Shown here piece after piece: positions 61,600 through 63,898 of a stretch of 64,000 nucleotides of DNA. The DNA is from an uncultured virus (IMG/VR IMGVR_UViG_3300042053_000001). Its lineage: Duplodnaviria; Heunggongvirae; Uroviricota; Caudoviricetes. The stretch lies in the IMG/VR virus record IMGVR_UViG_3300042053_000001. One strand, written 5' to 3'. The position numbers and the translations under genes were made by a program. The notes below the pieces were generated by a model that had not been told where the DNA came from, ran no database searches, and saw only the letters and a list, made by a program, of their open reading frames with translations. Positions within the stretch are counted from its first letter, which is position 1, and every line of letters begins with the position of its first letter.

Positions 61600-62034
61600 A
61601 TGAATGAAGAGAAAGAACAACGTAAATTAGACGAAGAGTTAGTTATCTCATGCACCTTGGGTCATACGAAAGTTGTTCAACTCCTCCTCGAAAACAGCGC
61701 AGACGTCAACACAACTGATAAGGATGGCAACTCACCCCTACATCACGCATGTTCAAGGGGACATACGGATGTTGTTCGACTACTCCTTAAAAACGACGCA
61801 AACGTCAATGCGATTAATAATGAGGATAACACACCATTATATATCGCATGTAGGTACGGTCATACGATAGTTGTGAAACTCCTCCTCGAAAACGGCGCAA
61901 ACGTCAACACAACTTATGGTAAAGGGTGGTCACCACTACGTATCGCACATTTCCTAGATTATATAGATATAGAAGATCTTCTAAAAGTGTGTATCAAGAG
62001 AGAAGAGTTTAAAGAGAATAAAGAAAGGAAATAA
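61600..62034 (+). CDS. Ankyrin-repeat protein 9 (capped cassette)
   Basis: N-cap KEQRKLDEELVISC, two internal repeats, C-cap. Confidence 0.95.
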   Translation: MNEEKEQRKLDEELVISCTLGHTKVVQLLLENSADVNTTDKDGNSPLHHACSRGHTDVVRLLLKNDANVNAINNEDNTPLYIACRYGHTIVVKLLLENGANVNTTYGKGWSPLRIAHFLDYIDIEDLLKVCIKREEFKENKERK

Positions 62035-62035
62035 A

Positions 62036-62764
62036 ATGATTAAAACGAAAGAACAAATTGAATTATATGAAGAGTTAAGTGTTGCATGTAGAGAAGGTCA
62101 CACAGATCTTGTTAAAGAACTCCTCCTTAAAAAAGGTGTAGACGTCCACGTGAAGAATAAGTATGGAGAGTCACCACTGCTCATCGCATGTTGGTTTGGT
62201 CATACGGATGTTGTTCAACTACTCCTCGAAAACGGCGCAGACGTCAACGCGATTAATAATGATAATAACACACCATTATATATCGCATGTAGGTATGGTC
62301 ATACGAAAGTTGTGAAATTACTCCTAGAAAACGGCACATCCATGATGACAATTAATAATGAGTATGGTAACACACCATTATATATCGCATGTGTTGAAGG
62401 TAATACGGATATTGTTGAATTACTCCTCGAAAACGGCGCAGACGTCAACACGACTGATAAGTATGGCAACTCACCTCTGAATTTTGCATGTAGTAAGAGC
62501 TATATAGATGTTGTTCAACTCCTCATAGAAAACGGAGCAGACGTCAACAAGGTTAATGAGTATGGTGAGACACCACTGCATCACACATGTTTATGGGGTA
62601 AGACAGAGATTGTTAAACTACTCCTAGAAAACGGCGCAAACATCAACACAGTTGGTCAGTATGGCAAAACACCATACGATATCGTATATAGGTCGGATGA
62701 TAGAGAGATCATAAAGCTTCTAGAAGAACACATAGAAAGAGAATCAAGAAAGGAAATAAAATGA
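62036..62764 (+). CDS. Ankyrin-repeat protein 10 (capped cassette)
   Basis: N-cap KEQIELYEELSVAC, five internal repeats, C-cap. Confidence 0.96.
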   Translation: MIKTKEQIELYEELSVACREGHTDLVKELLLKKGVDVHVKNKYGESPLLIACWFGHTDVVQLLLENGADVNAINNDNNTPLYIACRYGHTKVVKLLLENGTSMMTINNEYGNTPLYIACVEGNTDIVELLLENGADVNTTDKYGNSPLNFACSKSYIDVVQLLIENGADVNKVNEYGETPLHHTCLWGKTEIVKLLLENGANINTVGQYGKTPYDIVYRSDDREIIKLLEEHIERESRKEIK

Positions 62765-63174
62765 TTGAAGAGAAAGAACAACGTAAATTAGATCGAGGGT
62801 TAGTTAAGGCATGTTCGAGAGGTCGTTTAGATATTGTTGAATTACTAATTGAAAAAGGCGCAAACATAAACAATGTTGATGATACCAGCTGGTCCCCTCT
62901 ACATTATGCATGTTATAATGGTTATACGAATATTGTTCAAGATCTCCTCGAAAGACAGGCGGATATTGAGATTCAAACCGAGTGTGGTAGCTCCACACTA
63001 CATCTCGCATGTATTGATGGTCATACAGATGGTGTTAAATTACTCCTAGAAAAAGGTGCAAATGTTAACTTGACTCGTACGAATGGAGAGACACCACTAT
63101 ATGAGGCATATAGGTGGGGTTATACTGATATCATAGAACTTCTAATAGAACATATGAATAAAGAAAGAGGGTAA
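62761..63174 (+). CDS. Ankyrin-repeat protein 11 (capped cassette)
   Basis: N-cap KEQRKLDRGLVKAC, two internal repeats, C-cap. Confidence 0.95.
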   Translation: MIEEKEQRKLDRGLVKACSRGRLDIVELLIEKGANINNVDDTSWSPLHYACYNGYTNIVQDLLERQADIEIQTECGSSTLHLACIDGHTDGVKLLLEKGANVNLTRTNGETPLYEAYRWGYTDIIELLIEHMNKERG

Positions 63175-63175
63175 A

Positions 63176-63898
63176 ATGACTATAGAGAAAAAAGAACAAG
63201 CTAAATTAGATGAGTTGTTCATTATATCATGTGAATTGGGTAATACTGATCTTGTTCAAGAACTCATAGAAAAGGGTGCAAACGTTAACATGACTAAGTT
63301 GAATGGTCAGAAACCGCTGCATCGTGCATGTTGGAATGGTCATATAGAAGTTGTTAAATTACTCCTTACAAATGATGTAGATGTTAACGTGGTTAATAAG
63401 CAGGGCTACACACCGCTACATATCTCATGTGAATTTGATAATACAGAGATCGTAAAGCTGTTAAAACAGCACATCAAGAAAATGGATAAAATGACTACAG
63501 AGAAAAAAGTTCAAGATAAATTAGGGGTAGAGTTAGCTCAAGCCTGTTTAGAAGGTCATCTGGATATTGTTAAAGAACTCCTAGAAAAAGGTGCAAATGT
63601 TAACTTGCCTGATAGTAAGGGTCAGACTCCGCTGCATATCGCATGTTTTCAAGGTCATACAGATGTTGTTCAACTCCTCCTCGACAATGGTGCAGATGTT
63701 AACGTGACAGGTGGTTTTGGAAGTTCTCCCCTACATATCACATGTTGGCAAGGTCATACAGAGATTGTTCGACTCCTCCTAGAAAAAGGCGCACTCATAA
63801 ACGTGACTGATGATTATGACAGCACACCCCTGCATATCGCATGTAACCATAGTTATACCGAGATCATAAAGCTGTTAAAACAGTACATAAAGAAAGGG
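63176..63898 (+). CDS. Ankyrin-repeat protein 12, two fused cassettes, 3' end lost in the N gap (not in ORF track)
   Basis: Manual translation MTIEKKEQAKLDELFIISCELGN...KQHIKKMDK-MTTEKKVQDKLGVELAQACLEGH...TPLHIACNHSYTEIIKLLKQYIKKG; no stop before the Ns. Confidence 0.92.

Follow-up and report, generated by a model that had tools for sequence, protein, structure and literature searches.

In giant viruses and poxviruses, tandem arrays of ankyrin genes are a characteristic feature and are taken to reflect an arms race with the host. We describe here an array of this kind in a tailed phage. It occupies the right-hand part of a 64,000-nucleotide (nt) stretch of DNA from an uncultured virus (IMG/VR record IMGVR_UViG_3300042053_000001), which we refer to as the window, and it continues in a near-identical virus record, G001. 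The array is probably an accordion-like family of binder genes that was built by recombination and diversified on the binding face of its proteins.

Among the systems on record, those nearest to it include the "genomic accordion" ankyrin arrays found in Bodo saltans virus and the poxviruses (PMC5871332). Like the phage, Bodo saltans virus carries same-strand tandem ankyrin genes of variable repeat number at the genome periphery. Its latest duplicates lie towards the far end (PMC5871332), and in the phage a block of 93–98% identity lies at 72.3–74.9 kb. Bodo saltans virus is, however, a eukaryotic virus of 1.4 Mb with 148 genes of this type, whereas we find 19 in a tailed phage of at least ~75 kb with a bacterial host. 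The phage genes also differ in being joined by a conserved junction that permits translational coupling, in having N-termini that carry no fused fragments of essential genes, and in showing no copy-number change between the two phage records, compared up to 63898.

Ankyrin domains have been counted in 418 IMG/VR contigs (10.1101/608950), and the ANKp of the Ankyphages, which are phages of sponge symbionts, is likewise an ankyrin-repeat auxiliary gene on tailed-phage contigs. ANKp is a single gene, and two Ankyphage ANKs have signal peptides, whereas the array has at least 19 tandem genes without them. The ankyrin genes of Wolbachia and its WO prophages show repeat-number change, chimeric repeats and intragenic recombination, the last running through short direct repeats found at the same place in each repeat (PMC3563639), and the same mechanism may have operated in the phage array. 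The Wolbachia genes are scattered over the genome and prophages, often together with other domains, whereas the phage has a lytic-type replication module and one dense array of capped proteins of the size of designed ankyrin-repeat proteins (DARPins). Diversity-generating retroelements are also phage-borne and vary a binding surface on a constant scaffold, but the phage shows neither a reverse transcriptase nor a template/variable repeat pair, the ankyrin units being the only repeats of the array, which appears to vary by paralogy and recombination instead. A literature search, whose coverage left out most subscription journals, returned only single ankyrin genes of phages and those of Wolbachia WO, and no account of ankyrin genes arrayed in tandem in a tailed phage.

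Results and Discussion

From 54516 onwards, each sizeable open reading frame (ORF) of the window encodes an ankyrin-repeat protein. In 54516–63898, 13 segments were tested, and all of them match the Pfam ankyrin families (Ank and Ank_2 to Ank_5), with Ank_2 scores of 41–355 bits that are all above the cut-off of 27.3. The first-pass annotation of the window had taken the stretch that stops at 63898 as the homogeneous right end of the array. Positions 63899–63998, however, are a run of 100 N, which marks a scaffold gap in this assembly rather than the end of the array or the genome. Record G001 (72,577 nt) is 99.881% identical to window positions 2330–63898, with 73 mismatches and no gaps, and it reads through the gap point and carries on for another ~11 kb, the array continuing for at least 11 kb. 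In joined coordinates, which are the window coordinates extended through G001, the array starts at 54516 and reaches at least 74906, the point at which G001 stops inside an open ankyrin ORF. The 19 ankyrin ORFs are all on the + strand and span 20.4 kb, from the replication module to the end of the record; they code over 15,936 of 74,906 known nt (~21% of the known genome), and G001 contains 65 Pfam ankyrin matches. These are same-strand tandem paralogues at the genome periphery, as in an accordion array.

The repeats were compared with a profile built from four repeats of gene 62036 and then refined on the array, which found 145 matches in the 19 proteins. We kept 114 of these (at least 15 bits, no indel, extendable to 33 residues) and dropped 31. 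The 96 internal-type units (model start ≤6, end ≥27) comprise 59 distal units from genes 61600–64390 and 69678–74904, 29 proximal units from 54516–61569, and eight from genes 67069 and 69004; the 18 cap-type units were excluded from position statistics. Cys is found at repeat position 11 in 55/59 distal and 27/29 proximal units, compared with 96 of 470 generic units cut from 120 unrelated database ankyrin proteins. Since the residue is common to distal and proximal units, the whole 20-kb array appears to be a single lineage-specific family. The eight older and more divergent genes at 54516–61569 (starts at 54516, 54952, 56040, 56768, 57927, 58885, 59351 and 59962, all + strand; the last encodes 535 aa), each of which matches Pfam ankyrin families, belong to it on the same evidence. 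No extra domain was found in the non-repeat N-termini of the ankyrin proteins, even at E up to 0.1.

Two genes of other types lie within the array. A full-length valyl-tRNA synthetase (NCBIfam PRK05729, 1029 bits, cut-off 704) interrupts it at 64394–67093 in joined coordinates. Among its named relatives the nearest are alphaproteobacterial (~49% identity); one metagenome protein, P0122, which also has TPR domains, is 80% identical, and the nearest match on a viral contig, one with a name starting GVMAG, is at 37%. Between ankyrin genes at 68114–68923 is a AAA+ ATPase of 269 aa from the classical clade. Its best NCBIfam match is the anti-phage ATPase IteA, at 210 bits and thus below the cut-off of 510, covering positions 85–322 of the 367 in the profile; its PDB relatives are AFG2, p97 and CDC48, and it resembles CDC48 and PAN.

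The first-pass annotation had described capped ankyrin cassettes with 1–5 internal repeats at 61600–63898, and both the translations and Pfam confirm them. Gene 1 (61600–62034, 144 aa; + strand, as are those that follow) consists of an N-cap, two internal repeats and a C-cap. Gene 2 (62036–62764, 242 aa) has five internal repeats between its N-cap and C-cap, one of them with a 1-aa insertion, and gene 3 (62761–63174, 137 aa), whose ATG overlaps the stop of gene 2 (ATGA), has two. The last two cassettes had been taken for separate genes, but 63176–63898 is part of a single ORF, of which it makes up the first 241 codons, with no stop between cassettes. This fused ORF encodes 404 aa, ends at 64390 in G001 coordinates and holds three in-frame cassettes that start at 63176, 63491 and 63905. 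The cassette at 63176–63490 has one internal repeat between its N-cap and C-cap, and the next, at 63491–63898 and beyond, has two; at each junction within the fused ORF, an internal Met preceded by a purine-rich stretch is kept.

In the window, the intergenic gaps measure 1, −4 and 1 nt; two further ones, beyond it, measure 1 nt each. At the cassette junction AAAGAAAGGAAATAAAATG (62014–62038, + strand), C-cap tail codons contain a Shine-Dalgarno-like AAGGA and are followed by a TAA stop and, 1 base on, the next ATG. The upstream sequences of 21 cassette starts show that this junction recurs at 62740–62763, at 63155–63178 and at three junctions past the window. In its general form, AAAGRWAGGAAATAAAATG, the junction unites the codons for the basic C-cap tail with a Shine-Dalgarno-like AGGA and a TAA stop, and the ATG lies 1 base later or overlaps. 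The conserved junction and the gene gaps indicate that the duplication unit is the whole coupled cassette. A secretion signal in the basic C-terminal tails was considered and rejected, as the tail codons are accounted for by the ribosome site of the next gene.

The AlphaFold2 model of cassette 62761–63174 has a predicted local distance difference test score (pLDDT) of 95.3 and contains eight helices in four pairs, in the helix-turn-helix and beta-turn solenoid of ankyrin-repeat proteins. Foldseek returned at least 500 PDB matches to this model at E ≤0.001, and the best 50 are chiefly DARPin entries. The best fold matches are DARPins, with template modelling (TM) scores of 0.87–0.92, root-mean-square deviations of 0.5–0.9 Å and 37–42% identity; the target-normalised TM scores are 0.93–0.96 against DARPins of 124–130 residues. 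In addition, gene 62036 matches the designed ANK-N5C (residues 10–231) in sequence over its full length, as well as PDB DARPins. In view of the fold match and the full-length ANK-N5C alignment, "DARPin-like" is a fair description of the cassettes. DARPins are laid out as an N-cap, 33-aa internal repeats and a C-cap (10.1101/2021.04.27.441521), and the translations show the same architecture in the phage cassettes, with at least one internal 33-aa repeat in each. The most variable phage positions are also those randomised in DARPin libraries. The phage proteins differ in being natural, with variation that arose by evolution and not by design, in carrying Cys at the second position of the Ala-Ala pair in 82 of 88 units, and in having caps that are the family's own.

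Comparison of the array with itself gives ~64–66% identity in any 99-nt register, and the mean pairwise identity of the units is 65%. The most similar block pairs 72268–72693 with 74481–74906 (93.4% over 426 nt) and is located at the far end of G001. BLAST also aligns 61762–61896 of gene 1 with 62201–62335 of gene 2 at 90.4% over 135 nt, with flanks that fall to 21–64%; the 82 of 90 identical nt reported earlier between 61810–61899 and 62249–62338 were reproduced. Many further patches of 55–80 nt are 85–96% identical. The collinear paralogues g71672 and g73996 have units that are identical at 0.88 and 0.77, then 0.87, 0.94, 0.95 and 0.98, and g71672 has one extra repeat that its paralogue lacks. 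For 85 of the 96 units the nearest neighbour is in another gene, and for only three is it the adjacent unit. As a null for unit identity we used 300 codon-column shuffles of the 59 distal units. The mean nearest-neighbour identity is 0.790, compared with 0.740 in the shuffles, and 10/59 distal units have a neighbour at ≥0.85 identity, which no unit has in any shuffle, the highest unit-pair identity over all 300 being 83.8%. The remaining 49 distal units have no neighbour at this level, which argues that most of the family is old.

Mosaic units point to exchange between copies. Eight pairs share a 48-nt window of ≥92% identity although the whole units are ≤80% identical, compared with a mean of 0.2 and a maximum of two pairs in 200 shuffles. 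The near-identical window covers the 3′ two-thirds of the unit in all eight pairs, from the end of helix 1 to the loop. In framework codons, silent differences amount to 14/36 in the 5′ third and 7/82 in the 3′ part, although the low 3′ value is partly built in, as the pairs were picked for a similar window. At silent sites, divergence in the 5′ third reaches that of unrelated units, which argues for tract exchange rather than point mutation of the binding face alone. The pairwise homoplasy index (PHI) test within 99-nt units gives P ≤0.0035 when all sites are used and P ~0.5 when third positions are taken alone. The first-pass annotation had proposed duplication and shuffling of 99-bp modules. 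Duplication, mosaic units and a one-repeat indel are all observed, but the tracts are ~50–70 nt of framework or multi-repeat blocks rather than single modules.

The framework DNA of the distal units has a codon habit of its own. L22 is CTC in 56/58 units, a codon rare in this phage (4% among the Leu codons of 44 non-ankyrin genes), and A10 is GCA in 51/52, H15 is CAT in 44/44 and V18 is GTT in 29/29; L7 is CTG in 27/57 (4% background) and G26 is GGC in 22/45 (5% background). This habit is not seen in the proximal units. The pattern is consistent with a single progenitor repeat of different codon usage behind the distal subfamily, whose copies gene conversion may possibly have kept uniform. Silent-site conservation within the distal repeats is bimodal, in that the fourfold-degenerate sites of GCA-10, CTC-22 and GTT-18 are 97–98% fixed and those at positions 3, 7, 23 and 26 are at 37–53%. 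The motif CTCCT[CA]GAAAA[CA]GGCGCA, listed earlier as recurrent, is present in six exact copies and 12 with ≤2 mismatches, all between 59.5 and 63.8 kb.

A polar rise in similarity towards the right end, which the first-pass annotation had also suggested, does not describe the array. Unit identity to the distal consensus is 0.51–0.57 for genes up to 61569 and steps up at 61.6 kb to 0.65–0.79 at 61600–64390; it is 0.52–0.59 at 67069–69648, and then 0.71–0.77 at 69678–74904. The most similar block is at the far end of G001, and divergent genes interrupt the array at 67–69.6 kb.

The translations contain all of the beta-turn strings listed earlier and all of the residue pairs that follow (A/T)C. 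In the numbering of Binz et al. (2003), the positions randomised in DARPins are reportedly 2, 3, 5, 13, 14 and 33. In the register used here, position 1 is DARPin position 2, and the six become 1, 2, 4, 12, 13 and 32. In the 15 internal units of genes 61600–64390, 12 of which are in the window, the five positions of highest entropy are 13, 2, 12, 4 and 1, which are five of the six. Mean entropy in these units is 2.67 bits at the six positions and 1.08 elsewhere, so that variation is not spread evenly over framework and binding face; for the 59 distal units the values are 3.18 and 1.31, and the peak at the DARPin positions is present in every unit set.

All selection and recombination tests were made on paralogous 99-nt units. 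Pairwise counts are saturated, with synonymous p-distances of 0.5–0.8 at many codons. We fitted a codon model (GY+F1X4) on the topology of a nucleotide tree of the 59 distal units. The ratio of non-synonymous to synonymous rates (omega) is 0.57 in the framework (27 codons) and 0.39 in the core (19 codons), compared with 3.53 at the six a-priori binding positions, and it reaches 5.4 at positions 9, 31 and 33. Fixing omega at 1 for the six positions gives a likelihood-ratio statistic (2ΔlnL) of 23.7, and neutral simulations of six codons on the same tree give omega values of 0.62–1.71, with 0 of 60 reaching 3.53. These results suggest that selection kept the framework, while the canonical binding face, formed by the beta-turn and the beginning of helix 1, has likely diverged to near saturation.

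The two records provide a view of recent change. The window and G001 differ at 0.12% of sites, and the 73 differences occur all along the genome, with densities of 1.39 per kb within the ankyrin region and 1.15 per kb outside it. The region 61600–63898 has two substitutions, one non-synonymous and one synonymous, and no indel. Codon differences are eight non-synonymous and three synonymous in the ankyrin genes; outside these genes the counts are 10 and 49 (Fisher P = 0.0005). Within the first 110 codons of g59962, at 59977–60286, there are 11 of the 73 differences, giving seven residue changes and two silent ones. The changes toggle between residues that are common in the family (E/K, N/D, S/T and Y/H), and no donor tract for them was found elsewhere in the array.

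Several observations weigh against the reading of the array as a recombination-built family diversified on its binding face. First, in 16 reciprocal-best unit pairs dN/dS, the pairwise counterpart of omega, is 1.06 for the binding positions (the paratope) and 0.51 for the framework, and in the eight pairs of ≥80% identity it is 0.96 and 0.86, with 23 non-synonymous and five synonymous differences in the paratope of these eight. In recent pairs, a paratope value near 1 is compatible with relaxed constraint and positive selection alike. The expectation of a high paratope ratio over a purified framework is thus borne out by the family-wide model (3.53 and 0.57), but not by recent pairs. Second, the omega estimate comes from a poorly resolved tree of 99-nt units, with one tree for recombining sequences, and recombination inflates omega. 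The PHI test, for its part, is significant with all sites but not with third positions only. Third, seven of the eight non-synonymous ankyrin differences between the records are in one 310-nt cluster, codons 6–109 of g59962. None of them falls on a DARPin position, and the cluster could have arisen in one event; when it is counted as such, P becomes 0.09. Fourth, no indel or reordering is seen over the 61,569 nt aligned, up to 63898, although the comparison is with one very close relative.

Finally, searches of viral, metagenome and genome collections and of the protein database brought up no related array. Viral contigs searched with the ribonucleotide reductase, capsid and valyl-tRNA synthetase proteins and the framework DNA pattern share the query gene only, without ankyrin genes or synteny. 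The framework pattern has two matches among metagenome contigs, both in unrelated DNA of 47% and 66% G+C. All 61 loci matched by cassette g73281 in genome contigs are generic ankyrin genes at ≤43% identity, and g62036 retrieves only generic ankyrin proteins at ≤50% from the protein database. The phage collection gave no DNA match, and only capsid protein matches at ≤30% identity (Bacillus and other phages).

As to what the proteins do, the tail host-specificity protein matches gene transfer agent (GTA)-like proteins of Rhodobacter phages at 40% identity over 97% of its length and has further matches to Caulobacter and other phages, and the nearest named relatives of the valyl-tRNA synthetase are from free-living Hyphomicrobiales and Rhodobacterales types. 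Because of these relatives, the host is probably an alphaproteobacterium. A hydropathy scan, which is a crude export check and not SignalP, gives no signal-peptide-like N-terminus in any of the 19 ankyrin proteins, since no 10-aa Kyte-Doolittle mean within the first 40 residues exceeds 1.46 and the N-termini are charged; the highest 19-residue mean anywhere in them is 1.64. The low hydropathy and the cysteine in each repeat suggest soluble proteins of a reducing compartment, and the lack of an export signal points to action in the infected cell. There the proteins would bind several, or fast-evolving, host proteins in the course of host takeover or counter-defence; that they act in this way on several bacterial host proteins we consider an even bet.

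A different set of targets, with release on lysis as the main alternative to action in the infected cell, would follow if the host bacterium lives with or in a eukaryote and the proteins act after secretion or lysis, as has been proposed for ANKp and the WO ankyrin genes. Effects of phage ankyrin proteins on eukaryotic cells have been described (10.1101/608950), ankyrin genes are over-represented in intracellular Proteobacteria (PMC3563639), and both the tail protein and the synthetase point to an alphaproteobacterial host for a phage with a G+C content of only 37%. However, signal-peptide-like N-termini are present in none of the 19 proteins, whereas two Ankyphage ANKs have one, and Pfam scans found no F-box, PRANC or other eukaryote-directed domain. 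The absence of an integrase among 47 ORFs scanned, together with the phage's own replication module, suggests a virulent phage with a short expression window, and the named synthetase relatives are free-living. We therefore regard effectors aimed at eukaryotes as unlikely, and eukaryotic targets reached on lysis as doubtful to the same degree.

The array could also have expanded neutrally, with the variable positions drifting (omega ~1) and the family kept for one generic function, such as that of a scaffold or chaperone; the likeness to DARPins would then say nothing about diverse specificities. Indeed, the entropy profiles of the phage units and the 470 generic units correlate (Spearman 0.81–0.86), the ten most variable generic positions include all six DARPin positions, and residue composition at the variable positions is near that of generic repeats. 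DARPin libraries were designed from natural ankyrin variability, and the coincidence is therefore to be expected. While the entropy peak noted in the first-pass annotation is real, its match to the randomised positions is, as far as these repeats tell, a general ankyrin-repeat property and not special to the phage. What does distinguish the phage is an unusually uniform framework, with a paratope/framework entropy ratio of 2.4 compared with 1.9 in generic units. Drift agrees with the dN/dS of ~1 in recent pairs. It accords poorly with a family-wide omega of 3.5 at the six positions, outside all 60 neutral simulations, and with 19 intact ORFs and a conserved framework over 20 kb, which are costly for a ~75-kb phage. 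Neutral expansion thus seems improbable, and more so than the eukaryotic reading.

The idea of ongoing library diversification, in which the phage continually reshuffles 99-bp modules (e.g., through RecA and SbcCD) so that genomes in the population differ in their arrays, is very unlikely: although RecA and SbcC/SbcD-like genes, mosaic units, a one-repeat indel between paralogues and silent-site-conserved framework DNA that could serve as recombination homology all speak for it, two independent records 0.12% different show no indel, reordering or repeat-number change over the 61.6 kb compared up to 63898 and two substitutions in 61600–63898, mean unit identity is 65% with only 10/59 distal units having a ≥85% neighbour, and scans of 47 ORFs with PHROGs and of 34 entries with Pfam (E up to 0.1 for RuvC) found no RuvC, reverse transcriptase or other dedicated diversifier. 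The two-record comparison shows no fast turnover and is too shallow to exclude slow turnover. The array is best read as not being an active library generator.

On the basis of gene position and the diversifying-selection signal only, the array might be imagined as an arms-race arsenal of substrate adaptors, in which different cassettes would bind different host (e.g., immune) proteins and deliver them to the AAA+ unfoldase at 68114–68923. This is a highly speculative notion to which we give very little credence, but if true, it would amount to a programmable system of protein remodelling or removal, a bacterial counterpart of the poxvirus ankyrin/F-box adaptors.

The remainder of the window is a tailed-phage contig with every gene on the + strand. 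At ~3.6–28.9 kb it carries genes for lysis, terminase, portal, capsid, connector, tape measure and tail, among them one for a GTA-like tail protein. Downstream of the tail genes is the replication and recombination module, which extends to a ribonucleotide reductase at 52654–54558 (all +). The first-pass annotation had considered it plausible that diversification runs through RecA, RuvC and SbcCD. The phage does encode RecA (39238–40632), an SbcC-like ATPase (41376–42647) and an SbcD-like phosphoesterase (42619–43761), each on the + strand and a candidate recombination function, but not a detectable RuvC; a link of these three to the ankyrin array is something we only infer. A SurE-like gene (+) lies between RecA and the SbcC-like ATPase, within 39238–43761. 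No tRNA genes were found, and promoter-like sites do not exceed chance (30 seen, 31.9 expected).

Other features of the genome were noted in passing. The neighbouring ORFs at 22943–23899 (318 aa) and 24110–28156 (1348 aa) both match the N-terminal part of the phrog_4271 tail-protein family, over profile positions 5–138 and 6–1306, respectively, which suggests a partial duplication of a GTA-like host-specificity protein. The replication module contains a 1035-aa B12-binding radical SAM protein at 46804–49911 (TIGR03960 family, below cut-off). An ORF of 894 aa at the left end (319–3003) has no match in Pfam, PHROGs or NCBIfam, and its first two-thirds, to 2329, fall in the part of the window missing from G001.

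Conclusions

We picture the array as a lineage-specific multigene family of small soluble ankyrin binders in the accessory arm of a siphovirus-like phage. The family has probably grown by tandem duplication of translationally coupled whole cassettes, each with its junction and ribosome site, N-cap, repeats and C-cap, and by gain and loss of single 99-nt repeats, while unequal homologous recombination or gene conversion would have exchanged framework tracts between copies. The outcome would resemble a set of DARPins of differing specificity.

The array offers a clean natural case for the study of repeat-protein diversification by recombination and selection. Since the cassettes are natural, DARPin-sized and confidently predicted to fold, they should be easy to express, and they could lead to the host targets, for example defence proteins. 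A dense array over about one-fifth of a ~75-kb tailed phage suggests that the strategy of giant viruses and poxviruses is used by bacterial viruses too.

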